Below, piece by piece: positions 2,555-15,634 of a stretch of 37,261 nucleotides of DNA. The translations under genes were made by a program, and so were the position numbers. Location of the stretch: IMG/VR virus record IMGVR_UViG_2711768064_000001, positions 1 through 37,261 of that record; one strand, written 5' to 3'. Positions within the stretch are counted from its first letter, which is position 1, and the number at the start of each line of letters is the position of its first letter. This stretch comes from a virus. Its lineage: Duplodnaviria; Heunggongvirae; Uroviricota; Caudoviricetes. The notes beneath the pieces were generated by a model that was given only the letters and a program-made list of their open reading frames with translations, was not told the origin of the DNA and ran no database searches.

Positions 2555-3097
2555 TTTGTTCTCCACGTATATGCGCTGCACCGCGCTGAATTCGGGTAAA
2601 AGGAAGCCCTCACCGTCCGGCGATTATTGAGTCAATTACATTTCCATAAATGCCCCCGTAGGGGCGGTTAGTTTCTCCACAAAACAGAGAAGAACACCTG
2701 TGGTGGCAGCCGCCCGGATGGATTGGGTTATGAGCCCGTCGTCCGATGATGCTCTTCTCTGTTTTGTAAAAAGGACGGTACCAGCCGGAAGCAAGGGTAC
2801 AAGCTGGTACCGCCAAGACAACACACAGCATAAAGTTGTGGTGCCGGGTGCCTCCCGGTGCCTGGCGAAGGTTGTACACCAGACGGGTGGGTATCCACAG
2901 AAGGTCGACTGTCAGCCTCAACCTTAACCCGCGTGCGCTGAGCCGCATTCACCACAACGCTAAGGATTCTCTCTGGTTGAAAATACTTAGCTGTTATGTG
3001 CCTGCTTTTAGCCACATCAGGCGAGGTGGACCTGGTTATTCCCCAACAACAAGGATTCGGTATAATCTGGATATCCCAACAACAGGTAGGAAGGAAA

Positions 3098-5076: not shown

Positions 5077-5646
5077 ATGAGGCTAATCGTGGGTAAGCAT
5101 CACTGGAAAATAGAAAAACAGCCTGAGTGGTACGTGAAAGCTGTCAGAAAAACTATCGCGGCGTTGCCGGGTGGTTACGCTGAAGCGGCTGACTGGCTCG
5201 ATGTAACAGAAAACGCTTTATTCAACCGCCTTCGTGCAGATGGCGATCAGATTTTCCCGCTGGGATGGGCAATGGTTTTACAGCGTGCTGGTGGCACTCA
5301 CTTCATTGCTGATGCTGTGGCGCAGTCTGCAAATGGCGTCTTTGTGTCTCTTCCTGACGTCGAGGATGTGGACAACGCCGATATTAACCAGCGTCTGCTG
5401 GAAGTCATTGAACAGATCGGCAGTTATTCAAAACAGATTCGTTCAGCAATCGAAGACGGTGTAGTGGAACCGCATGAGAAGACAGCAATTAACGACGAGC
5501 TGTATCTCTCAATTTCGAAGCTGCAGGAGCATGCAGCACTTGTCTACAAAATTTTTTGCATTTCAGAAAGTAATGACGCCCGCGAGTGTGCAGCTCCGGG
5601 CGTCGTGGCGTCGATTGCTTCTGGTTGTGGAGAAACTAACGCATGA
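5077..5646 (+). CDS. CII/YdaT-like regulatory protein
   Basis: Position immediately after the Cro/YdaS-like gene; alternative GTG start at 5089 has a better RBS. Confidence 0.45.
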
Positions 5647-6001
5647 ACAGTTTAACAACACACTACCGTCGCTCGCAACTGATTGCGCTTCCTGTACCGG
5701 GTGGAAAAGCGAAGGTGGAATATTGCTATGCAGTGAATGTACCAGGTGACAGGGAAATTGTAACCCACAGCTTTGCAGAGTGGGCTGTGGGTGATTTCAA
5801 CCGGCAGAAGGAGACAGTCCTTTGCGACAAGTTAACCGCTGGTTCAAAGATCACTACGGAGTGCCCGTCAGAGTCATTCGTTGGGAGCCGGAAACACAAC
5901 GGGTTATCTACCTCCGCGAAGGTTATGAGCATGAATGCTTCAGTCCGCTCGAACAGTTTCGTCGTAAATTCAGGGAAATAGAGGTCGGTCATGAGCACTA
6001 A
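5643..6001 (+). CDS. Hypothetical protein with apparent frameshift (N-terminal part in frame of 5643, C-terminal part in frame ending 6001)
   Basis: ATGA overlap with upstream gene at 5643; protein-like C-terminal reading frame ([19 protein letters not shown]...) ends with TAA overlapping ATG of the next gene. Confidence 0.35.
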
Positions 6002-6932
6002 ATTAACCGGCTATGTATGGGATGGTTGCGCTGCATCAGGCATGAAGTTATCCAGCGTGGCAATTATGGCCCGCCTGGCTGATTTCAGTAATGACGAAGG
6101 TGTGTGCTGGCCATCAATTGAAACCATTGCCCGTCAGATTGGCGCGGGGATGAGTACCGTCAGAACGGCTATCGCACGGCTGGAAGCAGAAGGCTGGTTA
6201 ACGCGTAAGGCGCGTCGCCAGGGTAACCGTAATGCGTCGAATGTTTATCAGCTTAACGTTGCGAAGCTTCAGGCAGCGGCATTTTCTCAACTGTCAGATT
6301 CTGACCCGTCAAAATCTGACGCATCAAAATCTGCCCCGTCAAAATTTGATGCGTCGAAATCTGGCAAAAAAGCGGGTTTTCACCCGTCAGAATCTGGCGG
6401 GGATCCGTCAGTAAAATCAAAACATGATCCGTCAGATAAAAAAACTTCTCGTCCGGACGCTTCGCAACCGGACACGCAGACGGCTGAACAGGAGTTTTTA
6501 ACTCGCCATCCTGATGCGGTTGTATTCAGCCCTAAAAAGCGCCAGTGGGGAACGCAGGATGATTTGACCTGCGCACAGTGGCTCTGGAAAAAAATCATCG
6601 CCCTGTACGAGCAGGCCGCCGAATGTGACGGCGAGGTGGTTCGTCCCAAAGAACCTAACTGGACAGCCTGGGCAAACGAAATTCGCCTGATGTGTGTGCA
6701 GGATGGTCGTACTCACAAACAAATCTGCGAGATGTACAGCCGCGTCAGCCGCGATCCGTTCTGGTGCCGTAACGTGCTCAGCCCGTCGAAGTTGCGGGAA
6801 AAATGGGATGAGCTTTCCCTGCGCTTATCGCCGTCCGTCAGCACGCACACAGAAAAACGTGAAGACCCGTACTTCAAAGCCAGTTACGACAACGTGGACT
6901 ACAGCCAGATCCCGGCAGGATTCAGGGGGTGA
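5991..6932 (+). CDS. Replication initiation protein (O-like N-terminal HTH; C-terminal DnaT-like region)
   Basis: 313 aa; position after cro/cII-like genes; internal iteron array within the coding sequence. Confidence 0.7.
   Translation: MSTKLTGYVWDGCAASGMKLSSVAIMARLADFSNDEGVCWPSIETIARQIGAGMSTVRTAIARLEAEGWLTRKARRQGNRNASNVYQLNVAKLQAAAFSQLSDSDPSKSDASKSAPSKFDASKSGKKAGFHPSESGGDPSVKSKHDPSDKKTSRPDASQPDTQTAEQEFLTRHPDAVVFSPKKRQWGTQDDLTCAQWLWKKIIALYEQAAECDGEVVRPKEPNWTAWANEIRLMCVQDGRTHKQICEMYSRVSRDPFWCRNVLSPSKLREKWDELSLRLSPSVSTHTEKREDPYFKASYDNVDYSQIPAGFRG
6290..6443 (+). repeat. Iteron array (putative replication origin) inside the replication gene
   Basis: Tandem ~15-bp direct repeats CCGTCAAAATCTGAC / GCATCAAAATCTGCC / CCGTCAAAATTTGAT / GCGTCGAAATCTGGC plus degenerate copies. 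Confidence 0.65.
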
Positions 6933-10415: not shown

Positions 10416-11264
10416 ATGTCAAATAGGATATTTGATGCACTATACCGTGAGAAAATAGATATTTTTAAAAATTCTTTTTCCGCAACTTCAACTGAAGTTT
10501 TTTATGATCCTGAAAACAATCGTCTTATTCATGCTGGTGAATATGGAATATATCGTGAGTCGGTAGTAAGGGATTTTTTGAACTTTATAGTTCCTCAGCG
10601 ACTTGCTATATCTAATGGTTTTTTAATGTCCGCGATGGATGACATTAGCACGCAGTGTGATGTTGTTATTTTTGATTCTAAAATGACACCACTTTTTCAA
10701 GGTGGAGATAAACATAGGTTTTTCCCAATTGAATCTGTTTACTGCATTGGTGAGGTTAAGTCAAATTTATCTCGCGCTGCTTTTCGAGACGCCATTAACA
10801 AACTGGCGAAAAATAAAGCAATCGCCGAGAGAATAAAAAACCCTTCATTAAGTTTTAACTCTAGCAGTTTTAACTTTGATCCGGAAAACAACCCTTTTCA
10901 TGTTTATTCTAGCATATTGATCTGTAAGAAGCTTGATTTTGATATAAGCAATATAGAAAATGAACTAGATAATCTTTACTCTGATGAAATACAATTTAGG
11001 CATAGGCATAACCTAATCCTTAGTATCGAAGATGGGCTTCTTGCCTATTCAGCCCCGGATGGAGTGAAACTTCCATTCCCGATGCTTCGCCAGCAAAACT
11101 TTAAAAGTTGCTTCTTGACTCCAAAAGATGATGAATATTTCCACATGAAGTTTTTCGGTACATTTATGTTTATGTTAACCTCTGGTAAAATTTCCTTATA
11201 TCCTGAGTTCTCCGATTATATTTCACCAGTTCAAAATGGTGGAAGTGCTAGGGTTCAACTATGA
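10416..11264 (+). CDS. AT-rich moron protein with PD-(D/E)xK-like motif; candidate nuclease / defence protein
   Basis: 282 aa; ATG 10416 with AGGAGGG RBS; motif CDVVIFD...x26...ESVYCIGEVKS; flanked by hairpin upstream and terminator downstream. Confidence 0.65.
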   Translation: MSNRIFDALYREKIDIFKNSFSATSTEVFYDPENNRLIHAGEYGIYRESVVRDFLNFIVPQRLAISNGFLMSAMDDISTQCDVVIFDSKMTPLFQGGDKHRFFPIESVYCIGEVKSNLSRAAFRDAINKLAKNKAIAERIKNPSLSFNSSSFNFDPENNPFHVYSSILICKKLDFDISNIENELDNLYSDEIQFRHRHNLILSIEDGLLAYSAPDGVKLPFPMLRQQNFKSCFLTPKDDEYFHMKFFGTFMFMLTSGKISLYPEFSDYISPVQNGGSARVQL

Positions 11265-11802: not shown

Positions 11803-12189
11803 ATGTCCGATCCGATTTCCGGTACTGGGCTGGCTGGTGGTGTCCTGACGGGGGCCAGCGTCTATGGATTTCTGTCCGGAACCGATTACGGCGTGGTCTT
11901 TGGCGCGTTTGCCGGGGCTGTATTTTACATTGCCACCACAGCGGACCTGAGTGCAGCGCGCCGTCTGGCATATTTTCTGGTGTCGTATATTGCGGGGATC
12001 CTTTGTTCCGGGCTGGTGGGTTCAAAGCTGGCTCAGGTTACTGGCTACAGTGATAAACCACTGGATGCCATTGGTGCCGTAATCGTTTCTGCTTTAGCCG
12101 TCAAAATCCTGACGTTCCTGAATAATCAGGATGTTGGCTCGCTGGTGGCGCTGATAACGCGCCGGGGAGGTTCAGGTGGTACTAAATGA
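11803..12189 (+). CDS. Holin
   Basis: 128 aa with three hydrophobic segments, first gene of lysis cassette. Confidence 0.7.
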   Translation: MSDPISGTGLAGGVLTGASVYGFLSGTDYGVVFGAFAGAVFYIATTADLSAARRLAYFLVSYIAGILCSGLVGSKLAQVTGYSDKPLDAIGAVIVSALAVKILTFLNNQDVGSLVALITRRGGSGGTK

Positions 12190-12457
12190 CCCATCGGCAA
12201 CTATCAATGCGTTACTCTGCGCTGGGGTAGTGCTGACCCTGATGTTTTACCGTCGCGGCGATTCGCGACATCGACCGTGGATATCTCGCTTAGCTTGGCT
12301 GCTTACGGTCATTTATAGCGCCGTACCGCTGGCGTATCTGTGCGGTATCTACCCTTATTCATCTTGGGCCACTATCGGGGCCAACATTATTTTCCTGTCT
12401 GTGCTTGTCGCCGTCAGAGGCAACGTAGCGCGGCTGGTTGATCATCTGAGGCACTAA
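12176..12457 (+). CDS. Second holin-like / antiholin-like membrane protein
   Basis: 93 aa, two hydrophobic segments, between holin and endolysin. Confidence 0.5.
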   Translation: MVLNDPSATINALLCAGVVLTLMFYRRGDSRHRPWISRLAWLLTVIYSAVPLAYLCGIYPYSSWATIGANIIFLSVLVAVRGNVARLVDHLRH

Positions 12458-13401: not shown

Positions 13402-13508
13402 ATTGAAAATGAGAAATGAAAGTAGTAAATATGTGCCAAGCTGTGATGAAACCAGCAATGAAGCACGTTCATTAATCCGCATTCTCTGAAAAAGAGAAAG
13501 AATTATAA

Positions 13509-13535
13509 GCCTCGGTTTAATACCGGGGCTTTTTT
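13509..13535 (+). terminator. Rho-independent terminator after lysis cassette
   Basis: Stem GCCTCGG/CCGGGGC (one G-U), loop TTTAATA, T-run. Confidence 0.55.
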
Positions 13536-13686: not shown

Positions 13687-14241
13687 ATGAACTACCCAAC
13701 AGTTGTTAACGGCATCGATTTCCGAGACCTGATTTTTGTAGCAAACAACGATCCGGTTACCGATTCGTTTATGGTGGCGAAAGCATTCGGTAAGCTGTCG
13801 AAAAACGTAGTTCGCGATATTGAACGGACCATAGACGCTTGCCCACCAGAGTTTGATACAAAGCTCAACTTTGAGCTTTGCTATAGAAACAATGAGTTAC
13901 AGAATGGAAAACCGCAGAAATTCTACCGACTCCGCAAGGATGGATTGATGCTTCTTGTCATGTCTTACACCAAGAAAGAAGCCATGCGGATCAAAATTGC
14001 TTACATCAATGCTTTCAATTGGATGTACGCGATGCTTCAAGTTGGCTGGCGTCAGTTTGAAGAAGAACGAAATGCAGTAATGCTGGAGTTCATGAAGGAG
14101 AAGGATGTGGCCAGTATGTCAGGCCGTCTTCTGAATCGTTGGGGTAGGGTGAAGAAGCCCGTCCTACTTGCGAAGATTGAGAGACTCGAAAAGCAAGGAC
14201 AGATCCCACTTCTCGGATTAACCAAAGCACTCACCGAATAA
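13687..14241 (+). CDS. Rha family phage regulatory protein
   Basis: N-terminal DSFMVAKAFGK...NVVRDIER matches Rha (Phage_pRha) signature. Confidence 0.7.
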   Translation: MNYPTVVNGIDFRDLIFVANNDPVTDSFMVAKAFGKLSKNVVRDIERTIDACPPEFDTKLNFELCYRNNELQNGKPQKFYRLRKDGLMLLVMSYTKKEAMRIKIAYINAFNWMYAMLQVGWRQFEEERNAVMLEFMKEKDVASMSGRLLNRWGRVKKPVLLAKIERLEKQGQIPLLGLTKALTE

Positions 14242-14370: not shown

Positions 14371-14622
14371 ATGTCTGATAACTTTGATTTCGATGATGAA
14401 CGTAAACAGCTTGAGCACTTGAGTGATGAAGAGTTGGAGCAGGTAGCTAGGGATTACGATCTTCTTCCTGAAGGGGTATCTCTTGAAGATAAGTCTGTAG
14501 AATTTGTTGATGGCCTTATAGGTGAGATTATAGAGGCTAAGGCTTACCATGATTCACAAGATGCAGAATGGAACGAACAACAAGATATCATGGAAGAGCA
14601 AAGGCGTGATGCAGACTACTGA
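14371..14622 (+). CDS. Highly acidic small protein (83 aa); DNA-mimic / anti-restriction candidate
   Basis: 28 of 83 residues are D/E by manual count; AT-rich; own terminator. Confidence 0.5.
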   Translation: MSDNFDFDDERKQLEHLSDEELEQVARDYDLLPEGVSLEDKSVEFVDGLIGEIIEAKAYHDSQDAEWNEQQDIMEEQRRDADY

Positions 14623-14663: not shown

Positions 14664-14820
14664 CGACCGCCGTGAACCATCCGGTTATTGCGCGGCATGA
14701 TGTGTTGCAACTTGACGACTAGCGGCATTACAGCAGGCATTCACTGAGTGTCTGAGATAATGCTGTGATATCCTCAAACATGACGTTTCTTACTTAAAAA
14801 CATAAAGTTGAGGTTTTTAA

Positions 14821-15207
14821 ATGGATTTAGTAACAGTTACTACAAAAGAGCAACTAAAGAAAGCGAAAGAAGATAAGGTAGATGTCATCGTTGTAGAAGG
14901 CGAGCTTGCTGAAAAGCTGAAGCGAAGTAAGAAAGTTGCTATTGCAGCTGCAGGGGTTAGCGGTGTCGCTCTGACAGGTTTGATTGCTGCAATTGCTGCT
15001 GCACCTGCTACAGGTGGCACCTCATTTTTGCTCTATGCTGGTGTCGCAGGAACATCTGCTGCGACCTTTACTGGAATTGAAATTGCCTCAATAATCCTGG
15101 CAGGTTCAATTGGGATTACTCTTCTCGTGGGGATTTTTAAAGATTATGAAGAAATTGAAGCGTCTACATCTGGTGGAATAAAATTAAAACGAAAACAAAA
15201 AGATTAG
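14821..15207 (+). CDS. Small membrane protein with Gly/Ala-rich (glycine-zipper-like) hydrophobic domain
   Basis: 128 aa; soluble charged N-terminus then AIAAAGVSGVALTGLIAAIAAAPATGG...GIEIASIILAGSIGITLLVGIF. Confidence 0.5.
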   Translation: MDLVTVTTKEQLKKAKEDKVDVIVVEGELAEKLKRSKKVAIAAAGVSGVALTGLIAAIAAAPATGGTSFLLYAGVAGTSAATFTGIEIASIILAGSIGITLLVGIFKDYEEIEASTSGGIKLKRKQKD

Positions 15208-15243
15208 AATGAAATAGGCGTTTGCCTGACACTTTATCCCTAA

Positions 15244-15271
15244 GCCACTGGCATCCGCTGGTGGCTTTTTT
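15244..15271 (+). terminator. Rho-independent terminator
   Basis: Stem GCCAC/GTGGC with extended pairing, followed by TTTTTT. Confidence 0.5.
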
Positions 15272-15283
15272 ATTGGAACATAT

Positions 15284-15634
15284 ATGCCGCCAAGAACACC
15301 AAAAGCCTGCCGTGTTCGCGGCTGCCGTTTTACCACAACAGACCCATCTGGCTACTGTGAAAATCACAAAGGCGAGGGCTGGAAATCCTATAAACCGGGA
15401 CAATCCAGACAGCAGCGCGGATATGGATCGAAGTGGGAAGTCATACGAGCCCGCATACTGAAGCGAGACAAAGGGTTGTGTCAGAACCATCTTCGTCAGG
15501 GAGTCGTGAAGCAGGCGTCCTGCGTGGATCACATCAAAGCGAAGGCCCACGGCGGTACTGATGAAGACAGCAACCTTGAAAGCCTGTGCTGGTCGTGTCA
15601 CGCCGCGAAGACTGCGCGTGAGCGGCTCAAGTGA
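15284..15634 (+). CDS. HNH endonuclease (packaging-associated)
   Basis: Cys/His motif CQNH...CVDHIKAKAHGG...CWSCHAAK; immediately upstream of terminase genes. Confidence 0.8.
   Translation: MPPRTPKACRVRGCRFTTTDPSGYCENHKGEGWKSYKPGQSRQQRGYGSKWEVIRARILKRDKGLCQNHLRQGVVKQASCVDHIKAKAHGGTDEDSNLESLCWSCHAAKTARERLK

Follow-up and report, generated by a model that had tools for sequence, protein, structure and literature searches.

The window analysed here is a 37,261-nucleotide (nt) stretch, positions 1 to 37,261 of IMG/VR record IMGVR_UViG_2711768064_000001. It is an Escherichia coli prophage with e14-type genes (ymfK, ymfL, and ymfR), a P27-family small terminase, and a contractile tail. We examined a plus-strand gene at 14821-15207, which encodes a 128-amino-acid membrane protein identical to RefSeq WP_053286219.1, an entry labelled 'hypothetical protein'. 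We find that this gene is conserved and moves on its own between unrelated genomic contexts, and our tentative reading is that its product may act at the membrane against incoming phages. The genes of the region run from a Q antiterminator through a DUF6602 protein, two holin-family genes, a GH108 endolysin, and Rz/Rz1-like spanins to a terminator at 13507-13531. They continue through Rha (13687-14241), an acidic 83-amino-acid open reading frame (ORF) at 14371-14622, and the gene under study to its terminator, an HNH endonuclease gene at 15284, the P27-family small terminase, and the large terminase. The gene and its immediate signals are as follows.

14810-14813, plus strand: Shine-Dalgarno sequence GAGG, 7 nt 5' of the ATG, as read from the sequence
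14821-15207, plus strand: coding sequence of the 128-amino-acid membrane protein, with an ATG start and the stop codon included
15242-15273, plus strand: intrinsic terminator, an 11-bp GC-rich stem (15242-15267) followed by a T-run, ahead of the HNH endonuclease gene

The 128-amino-acid ORF is a genuine gene, and purifying selection on it is strong. The ratio of nonsynonymous to synonymous substitution rates (dN/dS) against its orthologues is 0.09-0.13, including pairs in which synonymous sites are unsaturated (dS of 0.19 and 0.98). This ratio and the conservation of the family led us to discard the possibility that 14821-15207 is open by chance. Because the conserved protein frame is that of the plus strand (dN/dS of about 0.1, 910 relatives), an overlapping minus-strand ORF at 14817-15020 is most likely spurious; that ORF was not itself searched. 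The gene is AT-rich, as an initial annotation of the sequence had noted, with a GC content of 41.9%, below the 50.7% of the window and the 54.2% of the large terminase gene. The terminator stem at 15242-15267 has an RNA folding energy of -17.7 kcal/mol (z = -2.9).

The translation matches the residues quoted in the initial annotation, which had described a charged N-terminal region followed by a hydrophobic stretch rich in glycine and alanine. Eighteen of the first 38 residues are charged (10 K/R and 8 D/E), and no charged residue lies between K38 and E87. Kyte-Doolittle averages over 19-residue windows exceed 1.6 in two blocks (residues ~38-64 and ~81-109), in keeping with the small membrane protein that had been proposed. 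Per-column conservation was measured on 102 family sequences, and the same 102-sequence alignment was used for an AlphaFold2 model, the confidence of which is given as the predicted local distance difference test (pLDDT). Together with hydropathy, these data divide the protein into five predicted segments.

14821-14934, plus strand: residues 1-38, charged, predicted cytoplasmic beta-alpha-beta segment and basic juxtamembrane helix LAEKLKRSKK (AlphaFold2 pLDDT 91-92 for residues 1-30; conservation)
14935-15003, plus strand: residues 39-61, predicted transmembrane helix 1 (TM1), Ala/Gly-rich, weakly hydrophobic, and resembling a signal-anchor-release (SAR) helix (hydropathy ~2.07; column composition; low AlphaFold2 confidence)
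15004-15072, plus strand: residues 62-84, uncharged, predicted outer turn or loop with the motif P62-x-T64-G65-G66-x-S68 (family conservation)
15073-15138, plus strand: residues 85-106, predicted transmembrane helix 2 (TM2), with E87, G98, and A104, and with A81xxxG85xxxA89 at its outer end (hydropathy up to 2.39; per-column conservation)
15139-15204, plus strand: residues 107-128, predicted cytoplasmic K-D-Y-E-E-I-E segment and beta-hairpin with a KLKRK end (AlphaFold2 strands 109-114 and 120-124, pLDDT 82-85)

Conservation extends over all of these parts. Each of the N-terminal core residues V6, L12, A15, I23, G27, and A30 shows at least 92% conservation, and T8, K9, and L29 are 82-88% conserved. 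The turn motif is likewise maintained (P 89%, T 84%, G 78%, G 96%, and S 94%). At the C-terminal end, the family pattern is K107-D-Y109-E/D-E and later L122 followed by three basic residues, with Y109 conserved at 99% and K125 at 85%; the tail of the window protein reads KLKRKQKD. The protein had also been called glycine-zipper-like, and this holds at the level of the motif, since A81xxxG85xxxA89 is conserved family-wide (A 78%, G 95%, and G/A/S 80%, with G98 at 94%), but not at the level of a named family, since none of the Pfam glycine-zipper families (Gly-zipper_Omp, Gly-zipper_YMGG, and Rick_17kDa_Anti) matches at E <= 1.

The AlphaFold2 model places strands at residues 3-6 and 22-25, a helix at 9-17, and a C-terminal hairpin at 109-114/120-124, all with pLDDT values of 82-92, and the membrane part has pLDDT values below 55. 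We read this as a transmembrane hairpin inserted in a small split cytoplasmic domain that would be built by both termini, with residues 107-128 predicted to pack on the N-terminal segment. From hydropathy, the positive-inside rule, and N-terminal fusions of family members to cytoplasmic domains, we infer an N-in/C-in topology in which both ends are cytoplasmic. One family member, P0157, is fused at its N-terminus to a double zinc ribbon (E = 4.5e-9). In another, P0175 (L180, 2887-3600; L numbers denote loci in our sample), an N-terminal LRAT / NlpC-P60-type domain (E = 2e-22) is fused to the complete membrane module, which hints that the module could target an acyltransferase- or phospholipase-like enzyme to the membrane or act as its effector unit. 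The genomic contexts of the LRAT and zinc-ribbon fusion proteins are short contigs and are uninformative. The low model confidence of the helices beside a confident cytoplasmic domain fits helices that need partner subunits, and the protein may oligomerise.

By profile similarity, the 128-amino-acid protein is a member of a large, widespread, and unnamed family that is not confined to phages. It matches PHROG 25580 ('unknown function') over its full length (residues 1-128 to profile positions 1-128 of 128, E = 4.6e-70). An exhaustive profile search of 1.84 billion clusters recovered 910 cluster representatives at E <= 1e-3 and 447 at E <= 1e-10; a word-indexed search recovered 42 clusters. PHROG 25580 thus represents the same family and comes without a function, whereas the family as a whole is far larger and has integron and chromosomal copies. 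Named organisms with family members are mostly Gammaproteobacteria, and a genome scan adds Sulfuricellaceae, a deltaproteobacterial metagenome-assembled genome (MAG), Arcobacter, a Gracilibacteria MAG, and the Gram-positive Salinicoccus.

Comparisons with characterised families gave no counterpart. A Pfam search at E <= 1 returned nothing except DUF726 (E = 0.9), and NCBIfam gave no match above its cutoff. A PDB sequence-profile search found no relative, and the designed TIM barrels that it returned were rejected as a chance beta-alpha-beta similarity; a fold search in BFVD and PDB likewise found no match. A tblastn search with the window protein and a Klebsiella homologue against 50,697 deposited phage genomes also found no match, which is a weak negative since the low-complexity filter of BLAST may mask Ala-rich regions. 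Literature searches by accession and PHROG identifier returned nothing relevant.

Several observations identify the gene as cargo. Of 5426 complete E. coli genomes, only 10 have the full locus, and in a related prophage a DUF6173 gene on the other strand fills the same slot between the spanins and the HNH gene, in agreement with the variable accessory slot proposed in the initial annotation. Replacement in a close relative, deviant GC content, and a terminator directly downstream are the hallmarks of a moron. In several sub-clades of the family, -10-like elements lie upstream of the gene. The initial annotation had credited the gene with its own terminator, in a segment that it ended at 15271, and this terminator (the stem at 15242-15267 plus T-run) indeed travels with the gene: equivalent hairpin and T-run terminators lie within ~40 nt of the stop codon at many loci (Klebsiella, Kosakonia, Erwinia, and others).

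Across 44 distinct loci, phage copies of the gene lie after the lysis cassette and before the packaging genes. The upstream neighbours include lysozymes (seven loci) and Rz-type spanins (Phage_lysis at four, DUF2570 at two, and DUF2514 at one), and the upstream holins belong to at least five Pfam families overall (holin_2_1, 2_3, 3_1, holin_8, and 3_7). The downstream neighbours include five different small-terminase families, plus HNH and gpA. Given this heterogeneity of holin and terminase types, the gene belongs to the slot itself rather than to any one lysis or packaging module. It moves by itself between unrelated contexts, independently of holin, endolysin, and terminase type, and it has no conserved partner in enterobacterial phages. 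At two loci (L018 and L019, 6001-7403), a lambda-type Nu1 terminase adjoins a block made up of the gene, its terminator, and an HNH gene cut off after its first 47 codons. This recombination joint shows that the cassette has moved as a block between packaging modules.

Outside phages, the contexts are diverse. In the superintegron of Vibrio owensii (L009), the homologue is a single-gene cassette (6001-6345) between repeats of the Vibrio cholerae repeat (VCR) type at 5771-5927 and 6343-6499, in an array with 11-15 repeat copies; this homologue, and not the window copy, is an integron cassette. In Neiella, a family gene has a TacA/acetyltransferase toxin-antitoxin (TA) pair and an Abi_C gene as neighbours, and the conjugative-transfer gene TraN is on the same contig. 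In Aggregatibacter, a family gene is part of an ASCH-plus-X insert between holC and valS, beside an HpaII restriction-modification (R-M) system. Lone inserts among housekeeping genes are found in Pseudomonas, Methylococcaceae, Arcobacter, and Salinicoccus.

Two of the genes that immediately precede family members encode matches to the Acb2/Tad1 hairpin domain (best E = 1.2e-18). The scan yielded this number alone, and we take the matching ORFs to be most likely L021 2242-2478 and L034 5599-5880 (also L042 2320-2556). Proteins with this domain are sponges that counter Thoeris and the cyclic-oligonucleotide-based anti-phage signalling system (CBASS). Therefore, the post-lysis slot also holds counter-defence cargo.

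At least eight non-enterobacterial loci, from Pseudomonas, Neiella, Methylococcaceae, and Gracilibacteria, have a gene for a zinc-ribbon protein of 47-69 amino acids that starts 0-5 nt after the family gene or overlaps it by 4 nt. The sampled loci with this partner are the following.

L037, 5363-5506: zinc-ribbon partner
L043, 2154-2327: zinc-ribbon partner
L046, 1213-1422: zinc-ribbon partner
L048 and L051: zinc-ribbon partner, 4-nt overlap
L053, 712-903: zinc-ribbon partner
L027 and L049, 6351-6494: zinc-ribbon partner

Matches of these small proteins are limited to generic zinc-ribbon models and fall below threshold. Given that the gene lies directly 3' of the family gene, a two-component arrangement may exist in these lineages, and the P0157 fusion also suggests such a two-gene form, which is absent from the enterobacterial phage copies.

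The interval between the acidic ORF and the gene contains a conserved structured element.

14722-14766, plus strand: conserved hairpin, with its 5' arm at 14725-14739, the loop TTCACTGAG at 14740-14748, and its 3' arm at 14749-14763

This hairpin is ~45 nt long, with a 15-bp stem that consists of two stems around a 3x3 internal loop, and it has a folding energy of -22.2 kcal/mol (z = -4.1). Its core, GGCATTACAGCAGGCATTCACTGAGTGCCTGTGATAATGC, has copies of 90-95% identity in 27 deposited phages, among them phi80, mEp390, ZF40, ST64B, and Klebsiella phages. A 63-nt stretch containing the core recurs in 86 further E. coli genomes, and the exact 14-nt core is present in more than 120 IMG/VR stretches, ~100 of them with the full element. 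Among the sampled loci, copies lie in L056 at 2501-2542 (phi80), L057, L058, L059, L016 at 3001-3063, and L060-L179. In four annotated examples, the hairpin follows the lysis genes and stands just before variable cargo (DNA polymerase III theta, a glycosyltransferase, Sb55, and a convergent gene), and sequence divergence begins immediately 3' of its stem. The hairpin marks the left border of the variable cargo slot.

Covariation was assessed over 59 distinct copies, in which 79.9% of cells are standard pairs. Double-sided changes number 32, compared to 15.4 ± 2.8 after shuffling, and none of 500 shuffles reaches 32. The covariation score of 0.185 exceeds the 0.03-0.10 of slid registers, and G-U pairs are frequent on the plus strand. 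The covariation and the strand-specific G-U pairs point to an element that would act as RNA in the sense of the late transcript. An extended -10-like sequence, TGaGATAAT, occurs at 14753-14761 without a -35 element. Because it is located inside the conserved hairpin, embedded in the 3' arm, it may not be a promoter, and we leave open a promoter reading of the hairpin through TGnGATAAT. Rfam gave no match at the gathering threshold over the whole window and none at E <= 1 around the gene, and the hairpin sequence was not found in the literature that we searched.

Two further genes in the window deserve mention. The DUF6602 protein (10416-11264, plus strand), encoded between the Q antiterminator and the holins, matches the PADLOC PD-DExK (E = 2e-30) and NucC (E = 6e-19) nuclease models. 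DUF6602 is the domain of Damona, a single-gene anti-phage cassette described in a study of the V. cholerae superintegron (bioRxiv 10.1101/2024.07.02.601686), and the protein is probably a prophage-borne defence nuclease. The acidic 83-amino-acid ORF (plus strand) is strongly acidic, has a weak PHROG match (E = 0.006) as its sole family match, and is confined to near-identical E. coli prophages; it is conceivable that it encodes a DNA-mimic or anti-restriction protein. L020 has a different small acidic ORF 5' of the homologue (5629-5859), and L031 has another on the 3' side of its homologue (6472-6633). In E. coli EC_J_9 (L001, 4410-6908), the prophage lacks the whole Q, lysis, and Rha region and has an IS3 element after a truncated KilA-N gene. 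This prophage, no longer able to lyse, still holds the acidic ORF and the 128-amino-acid gene intact.

Our best estimate of the function of the 128-amino-acid protein, held at somewhat short of even confidence, is a membrane-acting role in anti-phage defence or exclusion. In this proposal, the gene would be an autonomous single-gene cargo cassette, or moron, in a post-lysis, pre-terminase prophage slot. Its product would be a helical hairpin of the inner membrane with cytoplasmic termini, in which the N-terminal beta-alpha-beta segment and the C-terminal beta-hairpin form one domain that holds the inner ends of the two Ala/Gly-rich TM helices. The protein would perform a membrane function that benefits the host or lysogen and is directed at incoming phages. 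It could block entry at the inner membrane, or it could be a gated effector that self-associates through its conserved small-residue faces and then permeabilises the membrane, with the cytoplasmic domain as gate or sensor. The cargo slot, the integron cassette, the TA, Abi_C, R-M, and Acb2/Tad1 neighbours, and the DUF6602 protein in the same prophage all weigh toward such a role. In V. cholerae, 18% of superintegron cassettes of unknown function were found to be anti-phage, including transmembrane-only and pore-forming proteins (bioRxiv 10.1101/2024.07.02.601686).

Several systems resemble the proposed one in part. Small membrane-only superintegron cassette proteins, such as Brigantia and the Sucellos pore SclB, can be anti-phage (bioRxiv 10.1101/2024.07.02.601686). 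The V. owensii homologue is likewise a single-gene cassette between VCR-type repeats, a likeness drawn from description and not from sequence comparison, and no V. cholerae protein is among the named family matches. T4 Imm, P22 SieA, and HK97 gp15 are small phage-encoded inner-membrane exclusion proteins, and their genes are non-essential and accessory. The 128-amino-acid protein would resemble them in kind, although its family is also found outside phages and across phyla, and it has no similarity in Pfam or NCBIfam to the described superinfection exclusion (Sie) families (T4 Imm, P22 SieA/SieB, and HK97 gp15), among those that have models. The lambdoid moron bor of phage lambda encodes an outer-membrane lipoprotein. 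It occupies the same slot between the lysis and packaging modules as does the 128-amino-acid gene, with its deviant GC content, own terminator, and patchy presence. Unlike Bor, the 128-amino-acid protein is a predicted inner-membrane hairpin, and the two are unrelated.

A number of points weigh against a defence role. The evidence for it is computational throughout. Among the 5027 defence models of PADLOC-DB 2.0, no family matches the 128-amino-acid protein at E <= 0.1, and neither by sequence nor by fold does it match known Sie, holin, or pore families. The gene is oriented in the direction of the late operon and lies downstream of Q; it is therefore expected to be transcribed in the lytic cycle too, and lysogenic expression is presumed. 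A consensus promoter scan called no sigma-70 promoter directly upstream of the gene. Many chromosomal copies lie among housekeeping genes, outside defence islands. In addition, the sample of contexts is biased by its search patterns to FKDYEE-type members, and the neighbours come from crude ORF picking.

The alternative that survives best, which we regard as possible though on the unlikely side, is that the protein serves a membrane physiology unrelated to phages, such as tolerance of envelope or membrane stress or the function of a small channel or anchor, and is generic fitness cargo of prophages and integrons. The lone copies between housekeeping genes in several phyla would be expected of such a protein, as would the lack of similarity to any defence model. 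Moreover, the conservation of the cytoplasmic and membrane motifs across Gram-negative bacteria, Gram-positive bacteria, and the candidate phyla radiation (CPR) argues for a generic, taxon-independent activity. This explanation does not readily account for the patchy distribution dominated by horizontal transfer, of which the 10 E. coli genomes are an example, for the concentration in prophage cargo slots and an integron, or for the TA, Abi_C, R-M, and Acb2 genes among the neighbours.

The main specific rival is that the protein is a lysis accessory, similar to a class II holin, pinholin, or antiholin, that tunes the timing of prophage lysis; we consider this improbable. At most phage loci the gene directly follows genes for Rz/Rz1-type spanins, the lysis proteins that breach the outer membrane. 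Its size and lysis-adjacent position, the predicted two-helix N-in/C-in hairpin with a weakly hydrophobic, Ala/Gly-rich TM1 and a small-xxx-small motif in TM2, and the basic tail would recall pinholin S21 68 (Phage_holin_2_1), whose features are well established. However, no Pfam holin model, that of the S21 pinholin included, matches even at E <= 1, and S21 68 has no counterpart of the additional cytoplasmic domain predicted from the two termini. The adjoining lysis cassettes are already complete, some with true S21-type pinholins, and their holins come from at least five unrelated Pfam families; an antiholin is normally dedicated to a single holin. In the window, two holin-family genes are present at 11803-12457, and the gene lies ~1.5 kb 3' of the spanins, separated from them by the terminator at 13507-13531, the Rha gene, the acidic ORF, and the hairpin, so it is not encoded within the lysis cassette as its only or cognate holin. 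Family members also occur outside phages, in an integron, in chromosomes, and in a Gram-positive and a CPR genome.

The suggestion in the initial annotation that the protein is the membrane toxin of a TA pair with the acidic 83-amino-acid protein rests on their adjacency, shared strand, and opposite charge character, and it is essentially excluded: acidic homologues occur at 4 of 54 family loci (the window and three near-identical E. coli prophage copies), a 198-nt gap with the conserved hairpin separates the genes, which are not translationally coupled, single-gene cassettes exist, and neither gene matches PADLOC or TA-related Pfam models. A virion structural role was also discarded, given that the gene lies outside the structural module and that the product is a predicted membrane hairpin.

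With regard to a membrane-acting anti-phage role, we consider it possible, if rather doubtful, that the 128-amino-acid protein is the first examined member of an unnamed family (at least 900 clusters, from Proteobacteria to Firmicutes and CPR) of mobile, single-gene, split-domain membrane effectors that act as self-contained anti-phage defence, with a small zinc-ribbon partner in some lineages and, in enterobacterial phages, with delivery into a cargo slot that has a conserved RNA hairpin at its left edge. If the defence reading is true, a compact, 120-amino-acid, single-gene system with an unusual split-domain membrane architecture would join the anti-phage repertoire, and one gene would link three cargo platforms, namely prophage post-lysis slots, integron cassettes, and conjugative elements. 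Apart from any defence role, a family with 910 cluster representatives is large enough to be worth naming and testing. The hairpin may prove to be of wider relevance, since it is conserved across mosaic temperate phages and stands exactly where cargo starts, and it could explain how cargo slots are expressed or exchanged.

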